Source: Eledone cirrhosa (Eukaryota). From it: a stretch of 64,000 nucleotides of DNA. Position numbers and translations under genes: made by a program. Shown here one piece after another: positions 1,713 through 43,315 of this stretch. The stretch is from assembly GCA_964016885.1 (NCBI GenBank), contig OZ024743.1, positions 163,060,001 to 163,124,000 of the forward strand, written 5' to 3'. The notes under the pieces were generated by a model. That model was not told where the DNA came from. It was given only the letters and a program-made list of their open reading frames with translations, and did no database searches. Position 1 is the stretch's first letter. Every line of letters begins with the position of its first letter.

Positions 1713-1832
1713 GTTTACAATTGTTTCGCTACTCCATATTAAATTTCTGGATCAGATGACTATATATCATAATTGATCTGGTTCAGTTGAAAATAATTAA
1801 CATATTTAAAAAACAGAGCGGCTCATCGGAAC
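1713..1832 (-). ncRNA. Type I hammerhead-like motif, CCGAUGA core variant
   Basis: Mirror copy of 4371-4490. Confidence 0.55.
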
Positions 1833-1858
1833 TTCAAAGGAATATAAATTAAAATAAT

Positions 1859-3875: not shown

Positions 3876-4370
3876 GCATATTACATAACTCTATCACGAC
3901 CTCTACTGATTAACGATAGAACGGAGGTAACTATTAGCTGTCAACATCGAAGGGCTAATTCCTTCACCAATAGAATATTTGACCCAACTTAGTCATCTAG
4001 CGCCATTTTTACTTGTAGCTAATAAGTTAAATAGCTATGACTAACTTAGATAATTATAAGTTACCTCCCCCACATTGTCTCTCAATTAAAAAATTTAAAA
4101 ATTAGTACTTAACTATAAACTACCCACAATTTCTAATCTCTCGAGGAGTTAATTCCCCTGAAACCACCCTCTAATTAGTAAGGTAAATATGTCCCTTGGC
4201 AGCCATCTTGTTATCCATAGGCAGATCTCACACAATGCAGCCTCGACAGATGAATACTGCTTGATTATGGCTGACAACTGATGCAACCAAGACACCATAG
4301 TGAAAAACCAATATATGGAACATTATATTATGTAACATTCTCTCATTATTTTAATTTATATTCCTTTGAA

Positions 4371-4490
4371 GTTCCGATGAGCCGCTCTGTTTTTTAAATA
4401 TGTTAATTATTTTCAACTGAACCAGATCAATTATGATATATAGTCATCTGATCCAGAAATATTATATGGAGTAGCGAAACAATTGTAAAC
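4371..4490 (+). ncRNA. Type I hammerhead-like motif, CCGAUGA core variant, long stem II
   Basis: gtt-CCGATGA-gccgctctgt...atggagtagc-GAAA-CAATTG-TA^aac. Confidence 0.6.
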
Positions 4491-4873
4491 AGATATTATT
4501 ATTATTATTAATATTATTATTATTATTCTCTACATTCCTTACATCAAACTAAAATATGTTGACAATCTTTTAATAATGTCTTCCTTGTGAAATTTGTGGT
4601 CTTGTTTTGCTTAACTAATTAATATTTCCAGCTCTGCGCACCTAACTTCTGCATGAACCCAGCCACCTTAGCTGCTTTCTACTGCATATTGCACATTGAG
4701 CACATGCCTTTACGCTTTGGCTTCTAACTAATTCACCAATCTCTCCTCTCATATCTCCTCTCCTATCTCCATCTCTCTCTTTAAGATTGGTTACTCTTGA
4801 ACTGTATATATATATATATATTTTTTTTTTTATATATATATACATTCATAGATAAATACATACATATGTTTAC

Positions 4874-6733: not shown

Positions 6734-6807
<74 letters not shown>

Positions 6808-7656
6808 CCATTTTTCTAAGCCTTATGGGACTTTGCATTCAAAATCTTCATTAGAAGTCCTATAAACAGCAACCAGGTAAATTTATTTGATTTGATTTGT
6901 TTCAGATTTATTCAATTACAGATTTTCGATGAGATCGAGTCCCGTTCTGTCTCTGTGTGTAAAGTATTATAACTTGCGTATTATTCACCCGATCTCATTT
7001 TACACATTGCTAAAGGGGGATGCGAGATGTTTTTATAAAAGAAACATAACCACTTTAGATGATGCTGTATATTGTGTATTACAAGACTCTTTTATTAATT
7101 AGCACTGATGAACTGTATTACTTCTAGAACCTACAAGGTCGACAAGTATTGTACTCAGTAATTTGATTGCCGATGTCACGGAATATAGTTGTTGTAAGCG
7201 ACAATTCCTTAACGACATATACATAACATTTACAGCATTGTGTTTCACAATTTCTTCTCGGTGATCAGTCAGTTTGTAATGATATTTTCTTTATAGCTCA
7301 TTGAACATTTGGAGTAGGTTCTGTAGTATATCAGTCTCTGGTCGACAGTTAATGATTTGTTTCAGATTTATTCAATTACAGATTTTCCATAGAATGCACG
7401 GAAAAGCAAGAGTCACATTGGAAGAAAAACAAGAAATGCTTTTGCTTTGCGTTCTTTGCACGCAAGCGAGACAGAAGAACAATGTATGCTACGGCGTGCT
7501 CGCAATGCTGCTTCTACTTCGATCGCCAGAGCATTATAGACTGCTGAACAAGCAGAACCCCGGCTCGCTTGCGATGCTGCTTCTACTTCAAATAGCCGTG
7601 CTTTAGAGACTGTTGACCAGAGGGCAACAAGGCTTGCGGCTGATTCTCAACGAAAA

Positions 7657-10178: not shown

Positions 10179-10915
10179 ATAAAGTGTTGATATTAGTAGT
10201 GAGTGGAAGGGTTAATATGTAAAGAGGAAGCTCAGAGTGGTTGAGTCATCGTTGGTGTATTAATCCAGCTAAAAAGGAGGTGCGATTTCAGGTGCGGACA
10301 ACTTCTGAAGATCTCAGTCTTAGAATTGAGGCAAGTGGGGATGTTTTCAGGTTTTGAAGAATTCTGAATTTTTCCGTTGTACACAAAGAACATTTCTTTG
10401 TGCCCCTTCGGTATTCGCTTGAGTGGTCTAAAATTGACCAATCAATAGTGTATGGAATGTTTCTGTCTTTAAACTTCCACACTTTATCTGCCAGCGCCGT
10501 TGATGTTCTTTTTTCAGGGTGTTTAAATGAAGCGACATATGCATAATACTTGATTTTAAATCTGTCCTGTGTCATGCCAACATATCACTCGCTTCTGGCT
10601 AGCTGGTTATTAATAATCGGTGTCAACTTGGCCTCATATATAATAGATTTGGTGTTACATTTTCCCTGTAATGGGCATTCATCAGCTTCCCTACAGCTGC
10701 ATCCTAGATTTCCTCTAGTTACATTTGTGTTGGTGATTTTACTTTTCATTGATGGGCAGCAAGTGTAGCTGATTTTAACTAAATTTCTATTAAATATCTT
10801 ATTATACCTATGATTTTGGGGGAAATGTTTGTCTAGGAGTTCGAGGAATTTTCTTCCTACGTTAGTTTTAACAGTTAGAGAGAAAGGTGTAAACCATATA
10901 ATTTTCTTTTCCTGT
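10179..10915 (-). pseudogene. PLE (Naiad-type) linker and GIY-YIG EN fragment
   Basis: CSCREADECPLQGKC..IIY..YVGMTQDRFK..STALADKVW..CSLCTTEK..LNSKTEIFRSCPH, with a stop and a frameshift. Confidence 0.88.
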
Positions 10916-20641: not shown

Positions 20642-20877
20642 CACACACGCATACGTATATACTATTATTATAACTATATGGATATTGAGGCGCACACATA
20701 AACACGGCCACATACACTTACATCTAGATGCAGAACTAAAAATAGGTAAGGGAGTAAGTAATTACAGAGGGTGTCAGACACAGCTTATTTATAAAAATGT
20801 ATCTATAAATTTAGAAATAAAAAGAAATTTATTAAAAGAAATAAACAAGTAAAACATATACTCATACATAAAATACA

Positions 20878-20935
<58 letters not shown>

Positions 20936-21394
20936 TATATACATACACATACACATACACACACACATATATATATACACACATACTCACAACATACATA
21001 TATACATATATGTACACACGCATACACACATACATACACATACATATATATATACATATATATACACACATATATACACACATATATATACACACACATA
21101 TATACACACACACACATACATATACGTATATATACATACACACACACATATCCATGTATATATATACACAACCACATACTCACACACAACTCAGACATAC
21201 ATAAATATAGAGATATACATACACACATATATACATACATATAAATATATATACACACATATATATACACACATATATATATATATATATATAAAAAAAA
21301 ATAAATAAATACACAGTCAGACAATTATGCACATATATACACATACATACACATATCTCTACAAATACATATACATACATATACATACACACAC

Positions 21395-21474
<80 letters not shown>

Positions 21475-23759
21475 TCATACACACTTATTTACATGCGCAC
21501 ATATGTATTTTATACAAACACACAAACATACATACATATTTACATACACATACATACATCCACGCTTACAAATACGAATAATTATAGGGGGGGGGGATTA
21601 AAATTATTAGTGGGAAATAGTAAATATAGGTTTCAAGGAACATAGAATATTAATCTGCATTTAGATCATAATATGTGTTTACATAGTAGTTTCAGTATTA
21701 GGAAATGTAAGAAAGAAGGCAAAATTATGCATTTTAATATAAGTAGACTATTAATTATAGGTTAATTAAAGTAAAAATAGTTAATATATTAATTTCTAAG
21801 GTGTATACTACTTAGGTTTATAATATTTAAAGCGGAATTTTGAAGTTAAACAGTAGTAGAGTATTAATTATAGCATAACTAAATTAAAAATATTAACATT
21901 ATGGTATCAATTTTAGGAAATGAATTTAGTAATAGGGAAAGCCAAATCAAGTATTTCATCGGTAGTAGAATATTAATTATAGGTTAACTAAACTAAAAAT
22001 TATATATTAATTTCTATAGTATATGTTAATTAGGTTTATAATAATTAAAGCAGATTTTGTATTTTATCTATAGTAGAATATAATTATAGGTTAACCAAAA
22101 TTAAAATTAATCTATATATTTATTTGTAAAGAATATATTAATTAGGTATATATTTAAAAGTTTTTCTCAGTTTATGATTACATGATATTCTGCAATCCAT
22201 CTGTATTAGAATTTTAATTTTAAGCTAACTAAATTAAAATTATAGGTATTAATTTCTAAATTGTACATTAATTAGGTTTATAATATTAAAAAGTATTTCT
22301 CTGTTATTGATTACACGATATTTTGTTATATTTCATCTGTAAAGGAATTTTAATAAAAGGTTAAATAAACTAAAATTAATCTATAAATTAATTTCCAAAG
22401 TATATATTAATTATGTTAATAATATTTAAAAGTTTTTCACAATTTATGATTACACAATATTTTTTAATTTCATCTGTAGTAGAATTTTAATTAAATTAAA
22501 ATTATAGGTTAACTACATTTAAATTAAATTATATATTAATTTCTAAAATATATATTATTAATTAGGTTTATAATATTTAAATGTTTTTCTCAGTTTATGA
22601 TTACACGATATAATTAATTCCTGTCGCTTATTTAATAGGATATCCTTAGATTTCATTATTTTAAATAGTTCTTGGGAACACAATCTACATTCATTTCTAT
22701 TATTTTGATAAGGGGTGGCTCTTTTGAGCACACTCCAGGTCATATCATATTCTATATTCTTATTTCTATAACTATTAATTTTTTCTGCTAGAGATGTTGT
22801 ATTAGCAAGTGCGGCATTTTTAAAACTATGTTTGTGGGTATTAAACCTTACCTTAAAATTGTTAGAAAATATCGTGTAATTAATAACGGAGAAATACTTT
22901 TTAATATTATAAACCTAATTAATATACAATTTAGAAATTAATTTTAATTTAGTTAACCTATAATTTTAATTTAGTTAGCTTATAATTAAAATTCTAATAC
23001 AGATGGATTGCAGAATATCGTGTAATCATAAACTGAGAAAAACTTTTAAATATATACCTAATTAATATACTCTTTACAAATAAATATATTGATTAATTTT
23101 AATTTAGTTAACCTATAATTATATTCTACTATAGATAAAATACAAAATTTTGCTTTAATTATTATAAACCTAATTAACATATACTATAGAAATTAATATA
23201 TAATTTTTAATTTAGTTAACCTATAATTAATATTCTACTACCGATGAAATACTTAATTTGGCTTTCCCTATTACAAAATTCATTTCCTAAAATTGATACC
23301 ATCATGTTAATATATGTAATTATTTTTAATTTAGTTATGGTATAATTAATACTCTACTACTGTTTAACTTCAAAATTCCGCTTTAAATATTATAAACCTA
23401 AGTAGTATACACCTTAGAAATTAATATATTAACTATTTTTACTTTAATTAACCTATAATTAATATTCTACTTATATTAAAATACATAATTTAGCCTTCTT
23501 TCTTACAAATACCATTTCCTAATACTGACACAACTATGTAAACACATATTATGATTTAACTGCAGATTAATATTCTATGTTCCTTGAAACCTATATTTAC
23601 TATTTCCCACTAATAATTTTAACCCCCCCCCCCCCCCAATAAATTATTCGTATTTGTAAGCGTGGATGTATGTATGTGTATGTAAGTGTGTATGTATGTT
23701 TGTGTGTTTCTATGTGAGTATAAAAATACATATGTGCGCATGTAAATATGTGTGTATGA

Positions 23760-23817
<58 letters not shown>

Positions 23818-23906
23818 GTGTATGTATGTATGTATGTGTATGTATATGTATTTGTAGAGATGTGTGTATGTATGTGTATATATGTGCATAAGTGTCTGAC
23901 TGTGTG

Positions 23907-23945
<39 letters not shown>

Positions 23946-24155
23946 ATGTATGTCTCTATATATATGTATGTCTGAGAGTGTGTGTGTGTGTGGTTGTGTA
24001 TATATACATGGGTATATGTGTGTGTGTATGTATATGTATATATATGTATGTATGTATATATATGTGTGTATATGTATATATATGTGTGTATATATATATA
24101 TATGTATGTATATGTATATATATATGTGTGTGTACATATATGTATATATGTGTGT

Positions 24156-24189
<34 letters not shown>

Positions 24190-24664
24190 GGTGTGTATTT
24201 ATATGTATGGGTATATGTTTTACTTGTTTTTATGTATATGCATACAAACAGGTTAATATGCGTTAGGTTAAGTATGTGTATGTGTGTGTATGCACGTATG
24301 TATGTATCGAATGTATGGATGTGTAAATGTGCGTATGTATATAAGCATGTATATTTTATGTCTCTCTTTTATGTTTTTTTATGTTTTTTTATATTTCTTT
24401 TGTGAGACATTCGCGTCTGTGTATGTACGTACCCCCCCCCCCCTTATTTTTTGTTCCCCCGTTTTTAAGTTTTTTCCTTCTATAAATAAAATTTTTTTAT
24501 TTCTAACTTTATAGATACATTTTTATAAATATGCCGAGTTTGACACTCTCCTTTAATTACTTACTCCCTTACCTCCTTTAATTCTGCATCTGAATGTAAG
24601 TGTGTTGGGCGTGTTTATGTGAGCGCCTCAATATCCATATAGTTATAATAATAATATATACGTA

Positions 24665-24697
<33 letters not shown>

Positions 24698-27008: not shown

Positions 27009-28064
27009 ACCTGGTAGGCAGTACACTGAACCAAACATCTATGTGTATGGCAAACGACTTGGAGTGGTTGATCAGTTTGTCTACCTGGGAAGCACTGTCA
27101 ATCGATACGGCAACCTTGACAGTGAAATCTCACTTAGGATTAGGAAAGCAAGTGATGCTTTCGGAAAGCTAGAAAGGCGACTCTGGGGTCGGCGAGACAT
27201 ATGCAGGAGGACAAAGGTAAGGGTGTACAGGGCATGTGTACTCTCTTGTCTTCTTTATGCCTGCGAGACCTGGGTCACATATCGACGCCACCTTAAGCAA
27301 TTGGAGCGTTTCCATCAGATGTGTCTCAGACGGATACATGGCGTTCACTGGAGGGACCACATCAGTGATGTCGAGATTTTGGAAGGCTCTATGTGTGACA
27401 GTATAGAAGCTCTTGTGCTTAAGCAGCGACTCCGTTGGAGTGGTCACCTTGCCAGGATGAAGGATTCTAGAATACCAAAACAACTCTTCTATGGAGAGTT
27501 GGTTAAAGGAAAACGACCGCCACATAAACCAAAAAAGAGGTATAAGGATTCCTTGAAAGCCTCTCTGAGAGACGCTAACATCTCTGCTGATACATGGGAA
27601 AATATTGCTGCTGATCGTAATAAATGGAGAAAGACTGTATATGAAGGAAAAGTTGCCTTTGAGGCATCTCGAATCGCACACGAGAAAGTAAAGCGGGACG
27701 TGAGGAAGGGTATTGCTGTTGCACTTCCAGACGGCGAGGGTCCTCCTATGTTTCTGACATGCAGCGTCTGTGCGAGACTCTGCCTAAGCAAAGCTGGACT
27801 CGAAAGTCATCTTCGCAGTCATAAAGTAAGACCAGTGGTTGACTACCAGGCTGCTGTTGGAGATGCTACTCATCATGCTTGCCAAACATGTGGTAGAGAA
27901 TGTAAATCAGCAGGAGGACTCAAGCGACATGCAAAAGTACACGAACTCCAACCACAGCCGACTATTCCCAGTAAATGTTTTGGTTGCCGACTCTGTGCAA
28001 GACATTTTAGATCATTGGCTGGGCTAAAAAGCCACATTCGATCGCAGCACTGTTAGTTGCTATC

Positions 28065-28102
<38 letters not shown>

Positions 28103-28181
28103 GCTTATGTGCGTGCGTGTGTGTGTATATATATATGAATATGTATATTATTATTGTTGTTGTCGTTATTATTATTATTGC

Positions 28182-28224
<43 letters not shown>

Positions 28225-28346
28225 GTTATTAATGTATGTGTGTATATATGTGTGAGTGTATGTGTATGTATGTGTGTGTGTATATATGTATGTATATGTA
28301 TGTATGTGTGTGTGTGTATATATGTGTATGTATATATATGTGTATA

Positions 28347-28383
<37 letters not shown>

Positions 28384-28415
28384 CTTTTCCCCTTTTTTTT
28401 TTTTTTTTATTTATC

Positions 28416-28461
<46 letters not shown>

Positions 28462-28527
28462 TTTTTTTTTTTTTTTTTTTTTTAATTGTGCAATGGCCAT
28501 ACTCGATAACGAGGGGGCAGCCATCAT
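27009..28527 (+). mobile_element. 5'-truncated RTE LINE copy 1 (coding to 28056, three C2H2 fingers)
   Basis: [35 protein letters not shown]; three CxxC-12-HxxxH motifs; inserted in (TA)n. Confidence 0.95.
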
Positions 28528-28538
28528 ACATGTATACA

Positions 28539-28577
<39 letters not shown>

Positions 28578-28777
28578 ATATATATATATGTATATATATA
28601 CATGTATATATATGTATGTATATACATATATGTATATATATATATATATATACATGTATATATATATATGTATATATATACATGTATATATATGTATGTA
28701 TATATATGCATGTATATATATATATATATGTATGTATATATATACATGTATATATATATATATATGTATGTATATAT

Positions 28778-28824
<47 letters not shown>

Positions 28825-28835
28825 TATGTTTATAT

Positions 28836-28885
<50 letters not shown>

Positions 28886-28930
28886 ATATATATGTATATA
28901 TATATATATATGTATGTATATATATACATG

Positions 28931-28961
<31 letters not shown>

Positions 28962-28969
28962 GTATATAT

Positions 28970-29011
<42 letters not shown>

Positions 29012-29230
29012 ATATATATGTATATATATGTATATATGTATATATATATACATGTATATATATATATGTATATATATACATGTATATATATATATGTATA
29101 TATATATATACATGTATATATATATATGTATGTATATATATATGTATATATATACATGTATATATATATATGTATATATATACATGTGTATATATATGTG
29201 TGTATGTATATATATATGTATGTGTATATG

Positions 29231-29277
<47 letters not shown>

Positions 29278-29285
29278 GTATATAT

Positions 29286-29318
<33 letters not shown>

Positions 29319-29371
29319 AATATATACATGTATATATATATATGTATGTATATATATACATGTATATATAT

Positions 29372-29441
<70 letters not shown>

Positions 29442-29468
29442 GTATGTATATATATATATATATACACG

Positions 29469-29505
<37 letters not shown>

Positions 29506-29616
29506 GTATGTATATATATATATATATATGTATGTATATATATATATATACATGTATATATATATATGTATGTATATATATATATATATGTATGTATATA
29601 TATATATATATACACG

Positions 29617-29649
<33 letters not shown>

Positions 29650-29750
29650 GTATGTATATATATATATATACACGTATATATATATATATATGTATGTATA
29701 TATATATATATATATGTACGTATATATATATATATATGTATTTATATATA

Positions 29751-29786
<36 letters not shown>

Positions 29787-29944
29787 TATATATATATATG
29801 TATGTATGTATATATATATATATGTATGTATGTATATATATATATATGTATGTGTATATATATATATATATGTATGTATATATTTATATGTATATATGTA
29901 TGTATATATATATATATATATGTATGTGTATATATATATATATA

Positions 29945-31060
29945 TCTGTCAAACAGAACCCAACATGTTGTAGTTGAAGGAGTCAAATCCAGCCCAGCCA
30001 AAGTCAGTAGTGGGGTCCCACAAGGCACTGTGTTGGGCCCACTTCTCTTCATCATCTATATTAATGACATCACTAACATCATCAAACACAGCAACATTAA
30101 AATTTTCGCTGATGATTCCAAGCTCCAAAAGGTCATCAATGGCGTGGATGACCGGATCGGCCATCAGTCAGACCTACTGGCTGTTACCCAATGGGCGGAA
30201 AAGAACAACATGTTACTGAACGAAGACAAATTCGAACTGATCCACTTTGGAAAAGAGGATGCTCTGAAACTCCCGTACTCCCTTCCCTCCGGGGAAACTC
30301 TCGTGGCATCTAACAACATCAGAGACTTGGGAGTAACCGTGGACAGCAACATAAGCTGGGCCACGCATATAAGCAGCAAAGTTGACATGGCCCGCAGAAT
30401 GTGTTCCTGGATCCTCAGAACCTTCCAGTCGAGAGATTCCCACACCATTATCCTTCTCTTCTCTACTTTTGCCCGACCACACCTTGAATACTGTTGTCCA
30501 CTGTGGTCTCCCCACACGAAACAAAGTATCATGAAACTTGAAGCTCCTCAAAGGGCAATCACGAAAAAGATAGATGGCATGTCAGACCTTGACTACTGGG
30601 GTCGACTAGAAAAGCTGAAACTTTACTCACTCGTTATATTATCTGCATGATGTGGAAAATGTTCCATCATCACTGCTCAAATGATGTTGGCATCGCCTTC
30701 AAGATACACCCAAGGCTTGGGCCCCGTGCTATCCGTCCCATACAAAAATCTAAATCGCAACTCATAACAACAATACGGCACAATTATTTCACCTCAATTG
30801 GCCCTGCTCTCTTCAACATCACACCAGGACACGTCAAAACAGAAACTGACCACACAAAATTCAAGAAGTCTTTGGACAAATTCCTCCAAGTAATCCCGGA
30901 CAAACCACCCACACCCGGATATGTCTCCGCAAACAGTAATTCTCTTCTCGAATGGGCATGGTGCCCAAATCCTGAATTAAAAGACTTCGCCAGGTGGTGC
31001 TATTAAGTTAGACATGGCCTGGGCCAATACTGGCCAAAACATTTCAAAGTTATTCAAAGT
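29945..31060 (+). mobile_element. 5'-truncated CR1/L2-group LINE RT
   Basis: [46 protein letters not shown]; tail (TTCAAAGTTA)2; flanked by (TA)n. Confidence 0.93.
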
Positions 31061-31269
31061 TATATATATGTATATATATATATGTATATATATATATGGT
31101 TATACTTGGGGAGGGTCATATTTGTGTAATATTACCAGAATTAATAACAGAACACACTCACTGTTTGGTTGGTTTTCGCTTTATATATCTATGTATGTAT
31201 ATGTATGTATATATATATATATATATTTATATATATGTATATATATATAATCATATATATGTATATATG

Positions 31270-31810
31270 TAGAGATTATATTTAATTTGTTGGGATACAA
31301 CAAGCAAATATTTTTATAACTGATATAAAGCACTCAACAAATTATTGGAGTAAATATACAATATATTAACACATGGAAACTATATTTATAAAACCATATT
31401 TATTTCATTATGCATAATTCAAGGGCCACCAAGGCAGATTATGGTGCGCTTTCATCAGATAAAATACAATATAGATTAGTTTTATAAATAAATATTGACA
31501 TACCCTGAAAAATGCAACTTTACCGTTGAAGTCTCCTGGATAGTGGAGATATTAGATTTATTGTTGGTTTATTATGCAAATTAGTCTGCATAATAAACCA
31601 AGAATAAATCTAATATCTCCTCTATCCAGGAGACTCCAACCGTCAAGGTTGCATTTTTCAGTGTATGTCAATATTTATTTATAAAACTCATCTATATTAT
31701 ATTTTATCTGATGAAAGCGCACCATAATCTGCCTTGGTGGCCCTTGAAATATGTATAATGAAATAAATATGGTTTTATAAATATAGTTTCCATTTGTTAA
31801 TATATTGTAT
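31270..31810. mobile_element. Family A palindrome; HHR at 31700-31765 (+) intact, 31401-31466 (-) has GAAT
   Basis: Inverted arms meeting at about 31585. Confidence 0.85.
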
Positions 31811-31844
31811 ATGTGTATATATATGTATATATAAATATTTATAT

Positions 31845-32684
31845 ATACGATATTAAATAAATGGAAACTATATTTATAAAACCATATTTATTTCATTATA
31901 CATATTTCAGGGATACCAAATTAAAATATGGTATGCCTTCATCAGACAAAATACAATATATAAACAGTTTTATAAATAATTTTGACGTACCCTATTAAAT
32001 GCAACCATTATTTTTGGAAGCTGTCTGGATAGTGAGATGTTTATAATTATTTTATTAGTTATAGTGTTAAGCACAGTTAGAAAAATACATGACGTAAAGT
32101 TGTCACTATATCCCCCTCTCTCTATATAGTATTTCCTCTCTCTTGAGTTTTTCTATCTGTATGATGAATTATTATCTCTCTGTTGTTTTCTTTTGTTTTT
32201 CTTATTTCTTCCTTTTTTCTTTCTTTTTTTTATTTCCTCCTATCTATTTATATCTTTCTTTTCTACATACATTTCTCTCTCTCTCCGATATTTCTCCAGG
32301 TTTTCTTTTTCTCTCTCTCCTTCTTTTTCTCTCCGTTTTTTCTTTCTCTCCGTCTTTTTCTAACTGTGCTTAACACTATAACTAATAAAATAATTATAAA
32401 CATCTCACTATCCAGACAGCTTCCAAAAAATAATGGTTGCATTTAATAGGGTACGTCAAAATTATTTATAAAACTGTTTATATATTGTATTTTGTCTGAT
32501 GAAGGCATACCATATTTTAATTTGGTATCCCTGAAATATGTATAATGAAATAAATATGGTTTTATAAATATAGTTTCCATTTATTTAATATCGTATATCT
32601 ACTCCAAAAACTTGTCGAGTGCTTTATATCAGTTATAAAATATTTACTTGTTGTATCCCAACAATTTTAAATAGAACTTTTGCA
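31845..32684. mobile_element. Family B palindrome; HHRs at 31889-31953 (-) and 32488-32552 (+)
   Basis: Arms about 31845-32085 and 32355-32597; tattttgt-CTGATGA-aggcatacca..tggtatccct-GAAA-TATGTA-TA. Confidence 0.85.
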
Positions 32685-32736
32685 TATATTTATATATATA
32701 TATTTATATATATATATGTATATATATATACATATG

Positions 32737-32768
<32 letters not shown>

Positions 32769-33040
32769 CATATATACATGTATATATATATATGTATATA
32801 TATATGTATGCATATATAAATGAAGTAACAGGAGGCTGGACTGGTGTAAATCCTTGAAAGGTTTATTATACTATGACCGGGTTCCATATGAATCCGGTGA
32901 TGTCATCAGGTATTGGAATATAACAAAGGAATATGTATATGTATATTGTATGTATATATATATATGTATATTTATATATGTATATATATATATATGTATA
33001 TTTATATATGTATATATATATATATGTATATTTATATATG

Positions 33041-33121
<81 letters not shown>

Positions 33122-33216
33122 GTGTGTATATATGTATATATATGTATATATATATGTATATATATATATGTATATATATACATATATGTATATATATATA
33201 TATGTATATATATATG

Positions 33217-33267
<51 letters not shown>

Positions 33268-33392
33268 TCTTAGGGTAAACATTGATGCAATTCAAATCAA
33301 GCACTCAACGTACTTATTCCACATAGGAGTGACGGAGTAAATATCGAATAAGGAAAAGCGAAGTAGTTTCAGATGTTCAAGTCCTTTAATAA

Positions 33393-33484
33393 TAATTGTT
33401 TCTACTTTTGGCACAAGGCCAGCAATTACCCAGTGCATTACTGGTACTTTATTTTATCGACCCTGTAAGGATGAAAGGCAAAGT
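33393..33484 (-). mobile_element. 3' half of the Meta-like SINE
   Basis: Matches the tail half of the 1859-2042 copy. Confidence 0.85.
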
Positions 33485-34033
33485 TATAATAATAATGCTG
33501 TGATATATATTTCAATGGCGAAAGTGGCCACACTGTTCTGTGGGCCAGTCTCGCGACATCGCCAGACAGCTTGTTACATAATAAGGTTATGTTTCCGAGG
33601 CAATCCAAATTGAATCGATATGGGAACGGACGAAGTATGTGCTTTTGGGTTCTTCATCCGTTCCTCTGTGAGTACCAATTCACCCCAAATGGTCTGCGCA
33701 GGCGCAGGTCAGGGGGCAGTTGACCATTAGCTACCGCAGATTTAAACGAAATTCGCTTAGTCAGTTCCCTCTCTCAGCCAGACAATGACCCATTCAAGCC
33801 TGCACCATAGTTTACTGGGATGGGTAGCAGTAAACTATGGTGCAGTATATATATATGTATGTATATATATATATGTATATATATGTATGTATATATATAT
33901 ATATATGTATATATATGTATGTATATATATATATATATGTATATATATGTATATATATGTATGTATATATATATGTATGTATATATATGTGTATGGATAT
34001 ATATATATATATGTGTATGTATATATATATATG

Positions 34034-34065
<32 letters not shown>

Positions 34066-34190
34066 TCTATATATATATATGTATATATATATGTATATAT
34101 GAATATATGTATGTATGTATATATATGTGTATATATATATATATATGTATATATGAATATATGTATGTATGTATATATATGTGTATATAT

Positions 34191-34804
34191 ATATGTCAGG
34201 TCACCAGTTGGTGCTACTGGTAACATGTATTCCAGTACAACCTGTCCCATGGTCGGGTCGTTGGCGACTAAACTGGCAACCCCACCAAGGTTTCTTGGTG
34301 AGGAGGGTGACTTTGGACATCCTGCAGGACTAAAAACAAAACCTGTCAAAAGGCAAAGGAGCTCTTAAGAGTCAATGGCCATCCAAAATCACCGGGAGAG
34401 ATGACCCCTTAGCCTTTGTCAAGGCAGAATTCTAGGAGAAGGAAAACTCTGATATAACACCTGCAACCCTGATGGTATCCAATGATGTTGACTTGTTCTT
34501 CTTTTTGGTAAATATCATCTTGGTTAAGAGAGTGGGACTGGCTTTGTGCAGTGCCTTTGCTCACTATAAAAGCTTCACGGCACAGGCATTGCTTTATATC
34601 TGGAGATCTCTCTGCATTTGTCGTCACATGGTACCATGGGCCCAGCACTATGTGTCAATAATTGTCACAAGTGTAGTGTTTGTACCAGAGCTTTCAAGTC
34701 GCTGGCTGGACTAAAAAGTCACACTCGTTCAGCGCATCAGTAGGGGTTCTCCTACATGGATATAAAGTAGTGGCCGTACTCGAAAACGAGTTGGCAGCCA
34801 CCAT
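34191..34804 (+). mobile_element. Non-autonomous RTE-derived bipartite element, apparently full length
   Basis: RTE-like 5' motif CTAGGAGAAGGAAAACTCTGA; 3' part encodes relic [25 protein letters not shown]-stop; terminal GGCCGTACTCGAAAACGAG..GGCAGCCACCAT matches the RTE LINE end. Confidence 0.85.
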
Positions 34805-34879
34805 ATATATATATATATGTATATATGAATATATGTATGTATGTGTATATATATATATATGTGTGTATATATATATATG

Positions 34880-34910
<31 letters not shown>

Positions 34911-34927
34911 ATGTATGTATATATATG

Positions 34928-34958
<31 letters not shown>

Positions 34959-35013
34959 GTATATATATATGTGTATATATATATATGTATATATATATGT
35001 GTATATATATATG

Positions 35014-35050
<37 letters not shown>

Positions 35051-35105
35051 GTATATATATATGTGTATATATATATATGTATATATATATGTGTATATAT
35101 ATATG

Positions 35106-35146
<41 letters not shown>

Positions 35147-35542
35147 GTATATATTTATATATGTATATACTTATATATGTATTCATTTCATTTTACGTCC
35201 GCTTTTTCCCTGCTTGCAAGGGTGGGACGTATATATTTGTATATATATATCTGTATATATATACAAACATTTGTATATATATATATATATATACATACAT
35301 ATATGTATATACATATATATATATATATACATATATATATACATATATAAATATATACGAGCCACCCTTGCAAGCAGGGAAAAAGCGGACGTAAAATGAA
35401 ATGAATACATATATAAGTATATACATATATAAATATATACATATATAAATACATACATACATATATTCATATATACATATATATATATATATACACATAT
35501 ATATACATACATACATATATTCATATATACATATATATATAC

Positions 35543-35591
<49 letters not shown>

Positions 35592-35751
35592 CACATATAT
35601 ATATATATATGTATATGTATATATATATGTATATATATATAGGTAAATATATATATGTATATATCTATGTATATATATATGTATATATATATGTATATAT
35701 ATATATATATGTATGTATATGTATATATATGTGTATATGTATATATATATG

Positions 35752-35788
<37 letters not shown>

Positions 35789-36098
35789 GTGTATATATAT
35801 GTGTATATATATATGTATATATTTATATATATATATGTATGTGTATATATATATATATGTATATATTTATATATTTATATATATATATGTATATGTATTT
35901 ATATATATATTCATATATATGTATATGTATTTGTATATATATATGTATTTATATATGTATATATATATGTATTTATATATGTATATATATATATATATAT
36001 AAGATTAAAATGCTTGAGTGCATTGGAGTTAAACACACTCGTCGTATTAGAGAAATGACAGTATAGGATATAGCTCAATGTAATCCAACAGAGCCGAA

Positions 36099-36280
36099 AA
36101 ATTATAAAAAATAAACATAGAAGCCTTCAATACATCAAAAGTCCTTATTAGCTGACAATGTTTCGTCCCATTAAGAAGGACTCATCAGCGCTCTGATGAG
36201 TCCTTATTAATGGGACGAAACATTGTCAGCTAATAAAGACTTTTGATGTATTGAAGGCTTCTATGTTTATTTTTTATAAT
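36099..36280. ncRNA. Back-to-back hammerhead cores (36150-36191 -, 36190-36230 +) in a near-perfect palindrome
   Basis: CTGATGA-gtcc-9nt-ggac-GAAA-CATTG-TC^agc on both strands, 4 nt apart. Confidence 0.8.
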
Positions 36281-36372
36281 ATTTTTTATAATTTTTATAA
36301 TTTTTTATAATATATATATATATATATATGTATGTATATATATTTATGTATATATATATATATATAAGTATG

Positions 36373-36412
<40 letters not shown>

Positions 36413-36968
36413 TGTATATGTATGTATATATATATGTATATGTATATATGTATATACATATGTGTATATATATATGTATATATATATATATATGTGTATA
36501 TATGTATATATATGTATATATATATGTGTATATATATGTATATATATATGTGTATATATATATGTATATATATATATAAATGTATATATATATGTATATA
36601 TATATATGTATATATATGTATATATATATATAAATGTATATATATATATGTGTATATATGTATATATATATGTATGTATATGTATGTGTATATATGTATA
36701 TATATATATGTGTATATATATATATATACACATGTATATATATATGTATATATATATACATGTATATATATGTATATATATATATACATGTATGTATATG
36801 TATATATGAATATATGTATGTATATATATGTATATATATATATATATCTATATATATATGTATATATATATATATATATGTGTATATATATATGTATGTA
36901 TATATATATGTATGTATATATATATGTATATATATATATATGTATATATATATATGTATATATATATG

Positions 36969-37021
<53 letters not shown>

Positions 37022-37354
37022 CTATATATATATATGTTTACATATATATGAAAAAATGGCGTAGACATACAACACAACAGGAGGAACAATGAATATAACA
37101 CCACTGACGATGTTGCAGATGTGCAACGAAAGATTTATGTAAACTATATATATATGTGTTTGTCTATATTGTATCTGTATTATTTTTGACCGCCGGTCAG
37201 TCAATGGCAACATTGAGGACCGAGTAAGTTAGATCGCAGATATATATATATAAAAGACAGCGAGAAGCGAAAACCAACCAAACAGTGAGTGTGTTCTGTT
37301 ATTAATTCTGGCAATATTACGCAAATATGACCCTCCCCAAATATAACAATATAT

Positions 37355-38235
37355 ATATATCTATATATATATATGTGTATATATATATGTGTGTATATAT
37401 ATATGTGTGTATATATATATATATGTATATATATATGTATAGATATATATGTATATATTTATATATGTATATATATATATATATACACATGTATATATAT
37501 ATGTATATATATATATACATGTATATATAAGTATGTATATGTATATATGTATATATATATATATGTGGATGTATATGTATATATAAATGTATATATTTAT
37601 ATATGTATATGTATATATATGTATGTATATATATATATGTATATATATATATACACATGTATATATATACACGTATATATATATGTATATATCTCTATAT
37701 ATATATATATATATGTACACATGTATATATATATGTATGTATATATATGTATATGTATATATGTGTATATATATATGTATATATATATATGTGTGTATAT
37801 ATATATATATGTATATATATATGTATAGATATATATGTATATATTTATATATGTATATATATATATATATACACATGTATATATATATGTATATATATAT
37901 ATACATGTATATATAAGTATGTATATGTATATATGTATATATATATATATGTGGATGTATATGTATATATAAATGTATATATTTATATATGTATATGTAT
38001 ATATATGTATGTATATATATATATGTATATATATATATACACATGTATATATATACACGTATATATATATGTATATATCTCTATATATATATATATATAT
38101 GTACACATGTATATATATATGTATGTATATATATGTATATGTATATATGTGTATATATATATGTATATATATATATGTGTGTATATATATATGTATATAT
38201 GTGTATATGTATATATATATATGTATGTATATATA
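37355..38235. repeat. Compound microsatellite with a 386-bp higher-order duplication
   Basis: Marker GTGGATG at 37565 and 37951. Confidence 0.75.
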
Positions 38236-38736
38236 CATTTAAATAGCTTGACAAATTGAACATTGTGGTAGGCAAAACCCAACCACACAATACGAAAGTA
38301 ACGAAAGAACTAACAGGTTAAAAAGATACACCTGGGCAAATCAAACGATATACGGTTAAAGTGTTTCTATGAATTCGAAATCAGTTATCCAACTTACGTA
38401 ACAGGCACACTCGCGGTATTCTATGATCGAACAGAGGATTCATTTCATCAACAGGGATTCCGTTCTGCCACAAATCGGAGTGGACAAGCTAAGAAGGCAG
38501 CCAGCGAACACTTAGTTGTCACGTGTTATTTCCAACAAGGGAAGCAACCCTCGGTTTTTCGCGGGTAGATTCAAAGTGTTAACAAAGGAAATATAATTTC
38601 CGCTAACATTCCGAATAAAAGCTCTCAACCAGATATTATTAAACAAACACAAATAATTAACCAATCAACAGAATTGTCTAATTAAATTAATTAGTTAATT
38701 ATTAAATCTATGAGAAAATATGTATATATATATATG

Positions 38737-38771
<35 letters not shown>

Positions 38772-39675
38772 AATATATATTTGTGAAATGGGTGGTGGTT
38801 GAAATTCAGATGTGCACGGTTAAATGGTAGTAGACGTGGTCGGGCGGACATGAAAATGTATACACCTATGTAAAAAGTGCCAAGGAAGCAAATAGACGAG
38901 GTTTCAAATCTCTAACTTGTAAAATGTGGTCCCTGGGGCCCCCAAACGGTCTATTTACTATCGCGTTCGGTGAGTTATTTCCCCCTGTTCTAATACTTTT
39001 GTCTTATTTACAATTTCATACAAATAAAGCAGTAAATAAAGGATTATGAGTTCATGCAATTGACTTATGTTTCGTCACTATATATATATATATATATAAT
39101 ATGAAAACGCTTTAATAAAAAAAAATATCAACTGTAATGTATGTATGCATGTATTTATGTGTTTATATGAGCGGGGATATGCAAGTAAATCTTAATTTGT
39201 GGACAGCTTATCCTTAGCATAATATTCATGCTAGAACAGCATATATTTGAAAGTTTTCAGGGAGTTGAACTACTGATTTTGGATCGGCAGCTTTAGCTTT
39301 GAAAAAATGAAATGTGCAGTGTAAACATTTTTTATTATTCCTCCGGGGATTAATCTTCTCTGCCTTTTTCCATCTCTTTCTTTCTCTCTGGAAGAAATCA
39401 GCCGTAGTAAGACCTAAAAAAATGGTTAGATACACCATGACGCACCATGCATCACGGTAGAGTTGAAAAGCAGACTCAGAACATGACGTTGTGTGAGGGT
39501 GGCTCGCAGCCTAATGTTCCAGGGGGAGCAGAAGATAAAGGAGATAAAGAAGAAAGAAGAAGTTGTGAGCTGGAGTCCTATCAAATATGTAGGTTGTGTC
39601 TTAAATTGAAGGTTTAGTAGAAACAATTCATGTATAGTTTTGTACTTTTCTTTTTGTCATTCATATATAAACAAA

Positions 39676-40731
39676 TCTACTATATAAATTGGAAGTGGTC
39701 GGACGTTGTGTATGTAGTCGGATAAACGTCGAAGCGGCTTGGTGGAATGCAGCGAAAATTTACACAGTTATGCAGAATGATCCGAGGAGGCATTGGGTCG
39801 ACTTTCAAGCTACAAGCTTCCATGGTTACGGAGAAAATCGATGAAACAGGAATTTCCCATTCAAATTGAACTGAGAGTAATCTGTGAACGCAGAAGTAAA
39901 TATTTCGAGAAACGTTGCAACCGAACGAAAACAGGAAGACGATATTTTGGTTTGTGAAGACGTTCCCTGGCAATGAACGGGGGAAAAGCGAGGATAATAC
40001 GTCGTTATGTGGTGCGTGAAGAACAATTTCATGCAAAGACAAGACCAAGTTTATGGTATAAAGGGAGTCGTTAGACTAATATTCTATTTAAAATAACAGA
40101 ATGATTTCCAGCCCCGGAGTTTAAGAATGATGTAAATAAAATTGAAAACGAAAATGACAGAGGTTATTAAAATAGTAAAAGTAAATAGTGAAGATTTAGG
40201 CCAGTACATACGTATGCCCCGACGGACATACACATACATACGCACACACAAATACATACCCCCCCCCCCCCACACACACACACGAACGCAAGCGCGTATG
40301 TATAAACCTTATGCATTTCTACAGTATTTTCACCAAACTTCAACATAGGTTACTTATGTACTCCAGATGGTCATGGGCACTGTAATTTTTCCAGATATTG
40401 ATTATAAGGCCCCCCGGCAGATAACCACTTTAACCACTTCCTTGGAGTCGACTGAAGCACTGCAGTGCAATGAAACAAAACGTCATAACTTCTGGAGTTC
40501 GCAACCGATTTTCACAAAACTTGACACATGGGCTACGTTTGTCCTACATATGAATGTTAACTCTCAGAATTGGCACATATTGGGTAGGGGACCCCTGGGG
40601 GCAGGAACCCCTTTTAGAAAAAGCCGATGATTTTGTAAAAGTATAGTTTTCGAAGCAGCACTGAAGTATTGACATAAATGGTATACACAACTGCTATTTA
40701 ATAACTGAGCAACGCCGGGTACCTCTGCTAG
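39676..40731 (+). mobile_element. Non-autonomous Helitron
   Basis: A|TCTACTATATAAA 5' end; GAGCAACGCCGGGT..CTGCTAG|T 3' end shared with 12999-13763. Confidence 0.8.
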
Positions 40732-40838
40732 TATATGTATATATATATATATCTACTCTGTATGAATATTGAGTGCTAATTTTGGCATACCGCCTATGGA
40801 AGCACCATAACTAACATTGTACACAAGTATATATGTAT

Positions 40839-40916
<78 letters not shown>

Positions 40917-40965
40917 GTATGTGTATATATATGTATGTATATATATGTATATATGTATGTGTATA

Positions 40966-41298
40966 TCATCATGATCATCATTTTACGTCCGCTTTTCCCT
41001 GCTTGCAAGAGTGGGACGGGAACTGATTCTGGCTTGATTTCTACAGCTGGATGCCCTTCCTAACACCAACCTCATTTACAGTGAGTGGGTGCCTTATTGC
41101 CGTGGCACCTACACGACCACTTTGCAGTGGAATGATAGGGACCCAGTCCTATCATCTCATTTCTACAGCTGAGTAAACTGGAGCAATGTGAAATAAAGTG
41201 TCTTGCTCAAGGAAACAACACATCACCCGGTCTGAGAATTGCACTCACAACCTTTCGATTGCAAGCCCAATGCTCTAACCACTAAGCCATGTGCCTCC
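40966..41298 (-). mobile_element. CORE-type tRNA SINE
   Basis: Reverse complement of the 25976-26318 family. Confidence 0.85.
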
Positions 41299-41311
41299 AT
41301 ACATACATATG

Positions 41312-41375
<64 letters not shown>

Positions 41376-41395
41376 TGTTTGTATATATATATGTA

Positions 41396-43315
41396 TGTGG
41401 TCTTGTACAAGGGAAAGGGTAACAGGAATGATTGTGGGAACTACAGAGGTATATCATTGCTTTCTGTCGTGGGGAAAGTTTTATGTAGGGTGCTTCTGGA
41501 CCGTCTGCTGACACACATTGCAGATTGTGTCCTTCCTGAAAGTCAATCTGGTTTTCGTGTTGGACGCGGCACTACTGATATGATCTTCTCAGCTAGACAG
41601 CTCCAGGAGAAGTGCATTGAACAGGGCTTGGATCTGTATCAGGTTTTTGTCGATCTGACAAAGGCTTTCGATACTGTCAACAGAGATGCATTATGGAAGA
41701 TTCTCCAGAAACTTGGTTGCCCTGATAAGTTCCTTGCTTTAGTTAGGTCTTTCCATGACGACATGAAGGCTTGGGTTAATGTCGGAGGTAACATGTCGGA
41801 GCCTATCTCAGTAAAAAATGGAGTGAAACAGGGGGATATTCCAGCACCGACCCTGTTTGCCATATACTTTGCAATGGTTTTCTGTGTTGCATTCAGGAAT
41901 TGCGAGCATGGTGTTTACATCCGATATCGAACCTCAGGCAGCATATTTAACATCAGGCGCTTTGCTGCGAAGACAAAGGTATTTACATCAGTCATAAGAG
42001 ACCTCTTGTATGCAGATGATTGCGATCTTGTAGCGCACACAGAGAGTGATATGCAGCACATTTTGAATGTATTTTCTGACGCTTGCACTGCCCTGGGTTT
42101 GACTGTCAGTCTCAAGAAAACCGTCGTCATGTACCAACCTGCACCTGGTAGGCAGTACACTGAACCAAACATCTATGTGTATGGCAAACGACTTGGAGTG
42201 GTTGATCAGTTTGTCTACCTGGGAAGCACTGTCAATCGATACGGCAACCTTGACAGTGAAATCTCACTTAGGATTAGGAAAGCAAGTGATGCTTTCGGAA
42301 AGCTAGAAAGGCGACTCTGGGGTCGGCGAGACATATGCAGGAGGACAAAGGTAGGGGTGTACAGGGCATGTGTACTCTCTTGTCTTCTTTATGCCTGCGA
42401 GACCTGGGTCACATATCGACGCCACCTTAGGCAATTGGAGCGTTTCCATCAGATGTGTCTCAGACGGATACATGGCGTTCGCTGGAGGGACCACATCAGT
42501 GATGTCGAGATTTTGGAAAGCTCTATGTGTGACAGTATAGAAGCTCTTGTGCTTAAGCAGCGACTCCGTTGGAGTGGTCACCTTGCCAGGATGAAGGATT
42601 CTAGAATACCAAAACAACTCTTCTATGGAGAGTTGGTTAAAGGAAAACGACCGCCACATAAACCAAAAAAGAGGTATAAGGATTCCTTGAAGGCCTCTCT
42701 GAAAGACGCTAACATCTCTGCTGATACATGGGAAAATATTGCTGCTGATCGTAATAAATGGAGAAAGACTGTATATGAGGGAAAAGTTGCCTTTGAGGCA
42801 TCTCGAATCGCACACGAGAAAGTAAAGCGGGACGTGAGGAAGGGTATTGCTGTTGCACTTCCAGACGGCGAGGGTCCTCCTATGTTTCTGACATGCAGCG
42901 TCTGTGCGAGACTCTGCCTAAGCAAAGCTGGACTCGAAAGTCATCTTCGCAGTCATAAAGTAAGACCAGTGGTTGACTACCAGGCTGCTGTTGGAGATGC
43001 TACTCATCATGCTTGCCAAACATGTGGTAGAGAATGTAAATCAGCAGGAGGACTCAAGCGACATGCAAAAGTACACGAACTCCAACCACAGCCGACTATT
43101 CCCAGTAAATGTTTTGGTTGCCGACTCTGTGCAAGACATTTTAGATCATTGGCTGGGCTAAAAAGCCACATTCGATCGCAGCACTGTTAGTTGCTATCGT
43201 GTGTTTGTGTATGTGTGTGTGTGTGTGTGTAGATATGCTTATGTGCGTGCGTGTGTGTGTATATATATATGAATATGTATATTATTGTTGTTGTTGTCGT
43301 TATTAATATTATTGC

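Follow-up and report, generated by a model that had tools for sequence, protein, structure and literature searches.

Recurrent, strand-specific A-to-G changes in a young RTE-type LINE family of Eledone cirrhosa, consistent with RNA editing before reverse transcription

The window analysed here, a stretch of 64,000 nucleotides from Eledone cirrhosa (OZ024743.1, positions 163,060,001 to 163,124,000), carries on its forward strand two 5'-truncated copies of an RTE-type LINE. The first (copy 1, 27009..28056) corresponds to ORF positions 2499-3546 of the family and holds the end of the reverse transcriptase (RT) region, three C2H2-like zinc fingers and the stop; a (TA)n tract abuts its 5' end, and its 3' UTR (28057..28527), composed of (TG)n, (TAT)n and T runs and then the terminal motif of the family, is followed downstream by a (TA/TATG)n tract. 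The second (copy 2, 41400..43190), which belongs to a group of 37 copies termed clade A, begins at about ORF position 1755 and retains the RT domain, the zinc fingers and the stop, together with a 3' UTR (43191..43666) of microsatellite and terminal motif. Between 27009-28056 and 42143-43190 (an offset of 15134) there are exactly seven differences, all of them A/G, and a recount of both copies agrees with an earlier note on this DNA as to their positions and the lack of any C/T change or transversion. The shared block runs on to 28527 and 43666 and so takes in the microsatellite 3' UTR that belongs to the element and is also present in other copies of the family; the two are therefore separate insertions, and a segmental duplication of the pair was ruled out on the same ground.

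Comparison with other copies of the family gives these differences a direction, which is A>G at six sites and G>A at one. The G at 42354 of copy 2 (ORF 2710, Arg>Gly), an assembly allele, is private and is the immediate 5' neighbour of ORF 2711, where the clade had already undergone A>G; A is found there in 66/66 sister-group and 33/34 clade-A copies. Private to copy 1, and likewise an assembly allele, is the A>G at 27385 (ORF 2875, Ser>Gly). Four others are shared A>G variants with the ancestral-type base A in older copies: 42430 (ORF 2786, Lys>Arg) is fixed in clade A and is A in all 66 sister-group copies; 42481 (ORF 2837, His>Arg) is recurrent, with A as the older state and G in 40/66 of the sister group; 42692 (ORF 3048) is silent and near fixation, the older A being retained by copy 1 at 27558; and 27569 in copy 1 (ORF 3059, Lys>Arg) is recurrent and variable in all four sub-lineages. 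The G>A is the silent change at 27645 of copy 1 (ORF 3135), where 73/73 older copies have G. As first described, five of the seven sites recode the protein (R/G, K/R, H/R, G/S and R/K) and two are silent, and rechecking in both copies again placed five in an A-A-G context and none after a 5' G. The suggestion that the change at 27347/42481 could be CpG decay does not stand: of 67 older copies, 66 show A there. The reported clustering within 426 bp is true of this pair of copies but does not extend to the family, in which the recurrent sites span ORF positions 58 to 3499 and 10 of 47 gaps are of 15 nt or less, against 8.8 expected.

The family, which numbers about 1,900 copies in the genome, is one that we take to be RTE from its architecture and from the general features of the clade. 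It has a single long ORF of 1181 aa with an apurinic-type endonuclease and an RT, matching PF03372 (55-276) and PF00078 (595-862) above the cut-off. About 380 nt of family sequence lie upstream, and this 5' UTR is almost invariant, with one private A>G in 56 copies. No named reference stands among the 120 matches listed, in which the best identity is 63%. The 3' end is rich in microsatellites and copies are 5'-truncated, both being features described as common for RTE elements (PMC9115989). In the available text of the same source, RTE-2_OV of Octopus vulgaris resembles the Eledone element in having one ORF that encodes an endonuclease, an RT and a C2H2 zinc finger, in its microsatellite 3' UTR and its recent activity in an octopus, but has an ORF of 1109 aa; editing appears there once, as background. 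Since the four published RTE-2_OV primers have 3 to 7 mismatches in 20 against the Eledone element, the latter is a different family, and identity of the two was ruled out on these mismatches together with ORF length.

The seven differences are real and sample a family-wide pattern. The young set consists of 66 position-ordered sister-group copies taken from 100 matches, the 34 matches without young markers being treated as a separate set; in the census of clade A, 3 of the 37 matches fell below 98.3% identity and were dropped, leaving 34 copies. Shared alleles among the 66 young copies comprise 48 sense-strand A>G changes against 7 across the eleven other classes (1 T>C and 6 others, with A>C and A>T both at 0), and A>G makes up 616 of the 765 derived alleles counted. 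Singletons follow suit, with 58 A>G against 8 T>C, while A>C and A>T (7 and 5) stand against T>G and T>A (4 and 5). The singleton counts of 20 G>A and 19 C>T rule out DNA editing by APOBEC. DGR-like mutagenesis replaces adenine by all three other bases, and such a process acting through the RT is ruled out by the two zeros among shared alleles. A family consensus of G, named in the earlier note among the outcomes that would refute A>G, was not found: at almost every variable A/G site the older base is A, which fixes the direction. Site 955, scored G>A under the polarity rule, acts as a recurrent A>G.

Nor is the spectrum strand-symmetric, the asymmetry being strong, set by the element's own strand and alike in both assembly orientations, with 352 A>G against 8 T>C events in the 35 plus-oriented copies and 264 against 3 in the 31 minus-oriented ones. 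Errors of sequencing, polishing or assembly between nearly identical repeats are hardly credible as its source, as the bias tracks the element's strand in either orientation, recurs at sites and spares equally young LINE families, and the variants show tree structure. In Logan DNA contigs from four other runs A predominates at 42355, 42421, 42430, 42481 and 42692, and those of run X2, also from DNA, contain both alleles of 42430, 42481 and 42692. The private G at 42354 was not seen in the contigs of the other DNA runs checked, which counts, if anything, for the error explanation, as contigs of this kind do not serve to verify private alleles.

Two controls for strand asymmetry, a CR1-like LINE (32:24, ratio 1.00) and a Helitron-like element (53:51, ratio 1.04), are near symmetric, and three other young LINEs have little or no A>G bias. 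In matched top-hit sets, shared A/G columns per kb reach 6.3 and 6.7 in the RTE family as against 1.1, 0.7 and 2.7 in other young LINEs; four copies below 98% and an identical duplicate (L201) were left out of the control sets. A weak bias can be discerned in the young LINE F3 (A>G 15 vs T>C 3, p 0.087) and in the shared alleles of four pooled control sets (11 vs 0, p 0.009). A short RTE-derived element intended as a same-enzyme control gave 24:19 for singletons and 6:1 for shared alleles, in 37 copies that are all older. Older RTE copies have singletons of 148:112, without the motif. This small excess (ratio 1.24, p 0.09) would suit transcription-coupled mutation or repair at highly transcribed source loci raising A>G on the coding strand, and in other animals the non-transcribed strand is known to carry an A>G excess. 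However, the young copies have a ratio of about 7 among singletons and one far above that among shared alleles, private A>G is found in copies too young for other changes and does not increase with an age proxy (rho -0.007, 54 copies), and recurrence at particular sites is not predicted, so that this explanation is very improbable.

The sites at which A gave way to G are marked by their immediate neighbours. The ADAR-type context proposed in the earlier note, with 5' G disfavoured and 3' G favoured, holds in the 48 shared A>G sites, where a 5' G occurs 2 times against 14.8 expected (p 7e-6) and a 3' G 25 times against 13.1 (p 2e-4), and the bias is restricted to positions -1 and +1. Synonymous sites alone retain the first preference (5' G at 4/37 vs 10.4 expected, p 0.01), and the 3' G enrichment is not significant among them (14 vs 10.5 expected, p 0.17); the 18 sites fixed as A in old and G in young copies share the context, with a 5' G at 0 vs 5.5 expected. 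The usual context of m6A, a 5' purine and a 3' C, differs from that observed, and misreading driven by m6A was ruled out for this reason. ADAR enzymes prefer a 5' U or A and take C or G less, ADAR2 prefers a 3' G, and the nearest neighbours are dominant (PMC3113232), while the coleoid editing context has an upstream A and a downstream G (PMC8891338); the context seen here fits both descriptions, as far as the available portions of these sources give them. Predicted pairing around hot sites is modestly raised in a 150-nt window (0.775 vs 0.735, p 0.006), and with a 400-nt window four of six measures lie above p 0.05. Linked editing of AA pairs, as reported for coleoids, was not detected (odds ratio 0.6, p 0.3).

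It is further evident that A>G recurs at the same sites, a test that the earlier note had called for. Among the 30 new A>G sites of clade A, 13 are also variable in the sister group, against a mean of 2.0 and a maximum of 8 in a matched permutation of 20,000 draws, and 16 sites are variable in at least three of the four sub-lineages, against 0.28 expected. The hot sites include ORF 1132, 1702, 2506, 2611 and 3059, and non-A/G markers that tell clade A apart lie at ORF 2056 and 1140-1179. Alleles other than A>G recur in 2/126 cases, and the tree requires 131 steps for 35 A/G sites and 9 for 8 other sites. A modest number of one-off A>G mutations of source elements could mimic such recurrence if template switching or gene conversion then redistributed them among copies. 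Clade A does retain older alleles over ORF 1089-1179 in the manner of a recombinant tract, and recombination may inflate the recurrence, since four-gamete incompatibility climbs with distance in a 77-copy set (0.38 to 0.73, p 0.008, rho 0.15). However, a separate incompatibility test gave no such rise, incompatibility persists in 38% of the 13 site pairs that lie closer together than 60 nt, and every clade-A copy that gained recurrent Gs kept all seven clade markers checked, including a case of G at ORF 2785 beside the clade-specific G at 2786. Markers other than A>G are nearly without homoplasy, though five of those eight mark one clade. Reshuffling, which moreover leaves spectrum, strand and context unexplained, is quite improbable.

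The main rival to editing is an RT that wrongly inserts dC across from template A, or dG across from T on the second strand, with strong preferences for sites and neighbours and without deamination. In the available text of published measurements on L1-RT and an R2 RT, T is the base most often substituted (40% and 47% of substitutions) and C the one most often misincorporated, at 1.2-2.2e-4 per base, so that these LINE RTs favour T>C in cDNA, equivalent to sense A>G (PMC11331410); for retroviral RTs, second-strand dA>dG is given as the largest error class (PMC6009661). With 23 events per 27,646 A covered, private A>G in clade A arises on average at a rate comparable in order of magnitude to L1-RT error, the recoding among private changes looks neutral, and the weak bias of F3 and of the pooled controls points the same way. 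Yet the shared alleles, 48/55 of them A>G, are purer than the published RT spectra, and ORF 2611 and 2912 have each changed on three backbones among the 34 clade-A copies, roughly a hundred times the mean rate. The second-strand errors are described as lacking neighbour bias (PMC6009661), and the other young LINEs have far fewer shared A/G columns per kb. Slippage should make the new base match one adjacent to it, but sites with a 5' G are depleted and no excess of this kind appears in the other classes. RT error thus described is unlikely, if less so than the alternatives above.

Timing and selection bear on how the changes accumulated. The load of G at shared sites falls with the age proxy (rho -0.41, p 0.002, 54 copies), younger copies carrying more G, and nonsynonymous to synonymous counts run from 714:257 for possible changes through 18:5 (private, clade A) and 29:19 (shared) to 6:12 (fixed). 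The depletion of recoding in private A>G that is expected if edits precede translation is absent from the censused clade A; an early sample had looked depleted (22:21) and, clade A being neutral, this was ascribed to inheritance from source elements. Dense A>G runs within one molecule were not found in 81 copies, none of which has more than four private A>G (mild overdispersion, p 0.02), and ADAR hyper-editing was ruled out on this and on the lack of clustering along the ORF. The putative editing is sparse and site-selective, and resembles the recoding of cephalopod mRNA rather than dense hyper-editing.

Overall, the explanation is probably that the element's RNA undergoes site-selective A-to-I editing ahead of reverse transcription, by which the lineage ratchets towards G; the proposal of the earlier note that edited LINE RNAs were reverse transcribed draws its support from spectrum, strand, direction, context and recurrence, the editing itself being read from DNA. 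Matches to the ADAR deaminase domain (PF02137) occur on C1, C6 and C25 of the host genome, and the ADAR2 deaminase exon on C6 is 95% identical to Octopus vulgaris ADAR2, with catalytic motifs intact in alignment to human ADAR2, by which the host is seen to encode an ADAR deaminase. Such an enzyme would turn certain adenosines of the LINE RNA into inosine, which the element's RT likely copies as G into each new insertion, so that every insertion would sample the editing state of one germ-line or early-embryo transcript. An edited copy that became a source element would hand on its G, and purifying selection may filter the edits along the private-to-fixed gradient. We lean, with less assurance, towards the broader view that ADAR is the main mutagen of this active LINE, that germ-line edits are written into DNA in each round of retrotransposition, that young copies in their hundreds preserve, in heritable form, the editing level of each site (about 5-40% at hot sites), and that the LINE protein evolves largely by fixing filtered RNA edits.

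If true, RNA editing would act as heritable mutation on the scale of a family, in the animal group with most recoding, and coding RNA would be an ADAR substrate in octopus germ line or early embryos, a matter left open by a literature focused on brain and repeats. The gradient from private to fixed changes would then offer a direct test of edits becoming substitutions and of their selective filtering. With A>G so dominant among derived alleles, divergence-based ages of the family are inflated and trees misled by homoplasy. Any assembled genome can easily be scanned for the signal, and no RNA is needed.

No family-wide case of such RNA edits in retroelement copies was found in print, and the following comparisons draw on the available portions of the sources cited. 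In Rous-associated virus, as well as in avian leukosis virus, A>G attributed to ADAR action on RNA is, as here, read in the DNA form, but comes in dense bursts (near 50% of adenosines) over a short region of single isolates (PMC12925331); in the Eledone LINE, a non-LTR element, the changes are sparse, site-selective, recurrent over a 3.5-kb ORF and inherited, and A>G dominates the recent divergence of the family. APOBEC likewise leaves strand- and context-specific scars of a host deaminase in LTR retrotransposons, which are clustered G>A from deamination of C in cDNA (PMC4866542, PMC2873906), whereas the Eledone changes are A>G, with G>A equal to C>T. Coleoid A-to-I mRNA editing shares with this LINE the base change, the context at positions -1 and +1, the partial per-site levels and the weak link to structure; it also affects repeats, and edited adenines tend toward genomic G over evolution (PMC9068888, PMC7703385, PMC8891338). 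In those accounts, however, editing is an RNA-level event that is not directly inherited and genomic A>G is ascribed to mutation and selection, while here the edit would enter DNA through retrotransposition. In human cells ADAR1 also meets a LINE ribonucleoprotein, that of LINE-1, but L1 RNA was found unedited and the restriction independent of editing (PMC5224506), which is a point against the editing explanation; the sequence record of the Eledone LINE points instead to catalytic editing that left the element active.

The two RTE-type copies from which the earlier note proposed a genomic fossil of A-to-I RNA editing align without gaps (copy 1, 27009-28056; copy 2, 42143-43190; both on the + strand), and their seven differences are, in number, kind and place, those it had claimed: all are A/G, and translation bears out that five recode the protein. 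Its A>G direction held for six sites when polarised by older copies, the change at 27645 being G>A. The identity runs on across the microsatellite 3' UTR up to a terminal motif (28527 and 43666), and since copies at other genome places share this motif but not the flanks, the pair represents two insertions. The 3.0-Gb genome contains 1,876 exact matches to a 32-nt stretch of the element (944 forward, 932 reverse). Full copies carry a single 1181-aa ORF with endonuclease, reverse transcriptase (RT) and three C2H2-like fingers scoring under the Pfam cut-off, an architecture that would place the element in the RTE type; identity with RTE-2_OV was rejected by matching of the published RTE-2_OV primers. 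Among 100 young copies, 54 span the full length with nothing deleted, and 53 of those are free of stops.

Four partly overlapping samples, not independent replicates, were compared: (a) the first 100 places of the 32-nt match list in the order of contig C1, giving 104 aligned segments (26 young, 78 older); (b) 58 of the best-scoring matches to the window's two copies; (c) every one of the 37 places matching a marker of clade A, the fully censused young sub-lineage containing copy 2, of which 34 lay above the identity cut; and (d) of the 619 places that match the sister-group allele, the first 100, among which 66 have young markers. Variants were scored against the commonest letter per column, with polarity taken from older copies. 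Nearly all A/G columns variable among young copies have A in the older ones, and not the consensus G that would have reversed the earlier note's reading; DNA contigs from four other runs agree.

The young copies of sample (a) carry 58 A>G against 8 T>C alleles, and its older singletons 148 against 112 (ratio 1.24, p 0.09), with 253 G>A and 199 C>T (ratio 0.96). In sample (d), the strand asymmetry predicted from two copies is borne out across many: shared alleles comprise 48 A>G, 1 T>C and 6 others, and singletons 58 A>G, 8 T>C, 20 G>A and 19 C>T. A>G exceeds T>C events in plus-oriented (352 vs 8) and minus-oriented (264 vs 3) copies alike, as among clade A private alleles (34 copies; 23 vs 4). 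Deamination of cDNA is excluded, as its expected product is sense T>C. RT error is the serious rival, since LINE RTs prefer the same change at a comparable mean rate (PMC11331410, PMC6009661); it does not readily give so nearly pure an A>G spectrum.

Nor does RT error readily give the depletion of 5' G, found at 2 of 48 shared A>G sites in sample (d) against 14.8 expected, which carries the ADAR-type context noticed in the window pair to the young copies at large. A 3' G follows 25 of the 48 (13.1 expected), and among singletons the counts are 9/58 for 5' G (17.9 expected) and 29/58 for 3' G (15.8 expected). The bias is confined to positions -1 and +1, with 5' ratios of 1.71 for A, 1.24 for U, 0.83 for C and 0.34 for G, and a 3' ratio of 1.87 for G. 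At synonymous sites alone the 5' G depletion persists (p 0.01) and the 3' G enrichment falls short of significance (p 0.17); A>G singletons of older copies have no neighbour motif. The bias agrees with ADAR preferences (PMC3113232) and with the coleoid editing context (PMC8891338, PMC7703385).

Recurrence of sites, which the earlier note had proposed to test, is evident: 13 of 30 sites newly G within clade A are also among sister-group shared sites. Random placement predicts 1.2 such overlaps, and matching for context and codon class predicts 2.0, with no more than 8 in any of 20,000 matched draws. Repeated hits on single sites within 34 events are, again, not readily given by RT error. Across four sub-lineages, 16 A>G sites vary in at least three (0.28 expected) and 2 of 126 other alleles recur; because A>G markers delimit three of these groups, and one group is paraphyletic, the clade A overlap is the cleaner test. 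When 77 copies are placed on a tree, 131 steps are required for 35 A/G sites and 9 for 8 other sites. Site incompatibility in this set increases with distance (p 0.008), which counts against pure recurrence; an earlier copy set gave no such rise. Linked editing of near sites, as described in PMC5850729, or some template switching could cause the effect. Clade A copies with recurrent Gs retain all seven clade markers checked. At ORF 1089-1179 (frame of copy L165), five silent sites that changed in the sister group are still in the older state in clade A, which suggests that this 90-nt stretch is a recombinant tract.

Private A>G changes are uncorrelated with other private substitutions per copy (rho -0.007), so they arise when a copy inserts. 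Younger copies have a greater G load at shared sites (rho -0.41, p 0.002). Fixed changes between older and young copies number 18 for A>G and 9 for T>C, and the 18 have the context of shared A>G sites. The nonsynonymous to synonymous ratio of A>G drops from private (18:5, clade A) through shared (29:19) to fixed (6:12), with 714:257 changes possible; because the private ratio is neutral, the test for editing before translation lent that idea no support. The unique 5' UTR part (L165:110-400) is nearly invariant in 56 young copies, in contrast to the variable ORF, with 8 private changes (one A>G) and no shared ones. Many full-length copies of both clades (among them L093, L150, L162, L119, L144, L111, L091 and L115) share at least about 45 nt upstream of a T run, beyond this 5' UTR, which puts the true 5' end, or else a transduced flank, further out than the analysis frame.

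All control sets were top hits, a choice favouring near-identical copies, and cover LINE families and one mostly older Helitron-like element. A>G and T>C are symmetric both in a LINE taken from its motifs to be CR1-like (30 copies) and in an element likewise taken to be Helitron-like (29 copies), most copies being older. Three young LINE families from the flanks, F3, F2 and F4 (L229, L260 and L289; many near-identical copies each), presumably two with a restriction-like endonuclease end and one RTE-like, gave A>G to T>C counts of 15:3, 6:5 and 15:5, with 1.1, 0.7 and 2.7 shared A/G columns per kb; RTE sets chosen alike gave 6.3 and 6.7. F3 has 13 private A>G against 3 and few shared sites, and F2 no private A>G excess. 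Such strong differences between families are not readily given by RT error. Pooled with 14 younger CR1-like copies, the three families have 11 shared A>G (none with 5' G) against 0 T>C, so a weaker form of the bias may be general.

Overall, A-to-I editing of the element RNA ahead of reverse transcription would jointly account for base change, strand, context, recurrence and timing, and on these sequence patterns RNA editing is quite probably the cause. The editing interpretation is supported, and extends from two copies to the family. Predicted local folding at A>G sites gives a modest pairing excess; a possible double-stranded substrate is RTE RNA paired to antisense RNA transcribed from other copies. 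Adenosine-deaminase profile matches lie at four places, C1:146445324-146462757, C1:320727439-320727711, C25:17350492-17356918 and G000:C6:13644405-13646174, the last being an ADAR2-like deaminase exon with 95% identity to Octopus vulgaris ADAR2.

Other repeats in the window merit mention. On the sense strand, (TA)n or (TATG)n comes after most RTE copies, and the (TA)n tracts at 28528-29945 and 57997-63030 are on one strand far richer in G than in C (GC skew of about +0.46), for which tail sequence, target choice and edited (UA)n RNA are candidate readings. Directly behind copy 1, inside the tract, lies a 5'-truncated CR1-like LINE (29946-31060, +) with an RT profile match and about 2,300 candidates in the genome. 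At 34197-34802 (+) lies a non-coding element of 606 bp, repeated in part near 49734-50087 and 58833-59149; the genome contains 40 or more identical copies of it and some 2,000 candidates. By eye, it consists of an RTE-like 5' UTR fused to a zinc-finger remnant and a 3' terminal motif of RTE-like type, which suggests a young derivative of an RTE that is itself non-autonomous. The coding remnant at 6806-10200, presumably Helitron-like, has no Pfam match and 142 candidates in the genome; the younger Helitron-like subgroup L223-L228 is about 99% alike. An inverted pair (20642-24674; 82% identity over about 1.8 kb) beside a 200-base N gap contains AT-rich tandem units of 109-139 bp. Degraded fragments that we take to be Penelope-like lie at 971-4600 (weak GIY-YIG match at 971-1591; inverted flanking repeats), 48771-49799, 51358-51984 and 55557-57248.

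APOBEC scars in retroelement DNA were reportedly described by Carmi et al. in 2011. A search of mostly open-access literature brought up no LINE family described as evolving through recurrent A>G change of ADAR type, and an earlier account elsewhere is possible. Albertin et al. call a role of editing against transposons in cephalopods unexplored (PMC9068888), the words 'editing' and 'ADAR' are absent from two 2026 octopus-repeat papers (PMC13282606, PMC12988792), PMC5974252 offered nothing that bears on the question, and editing was not found in human L1 RNA (PMC5224506). Known deaminase scars in retroelement DNA are those of APOBEC (PMC4866542, PMC2873906) and, in avian retroviruses, bursts of A>G (PMC12925331).
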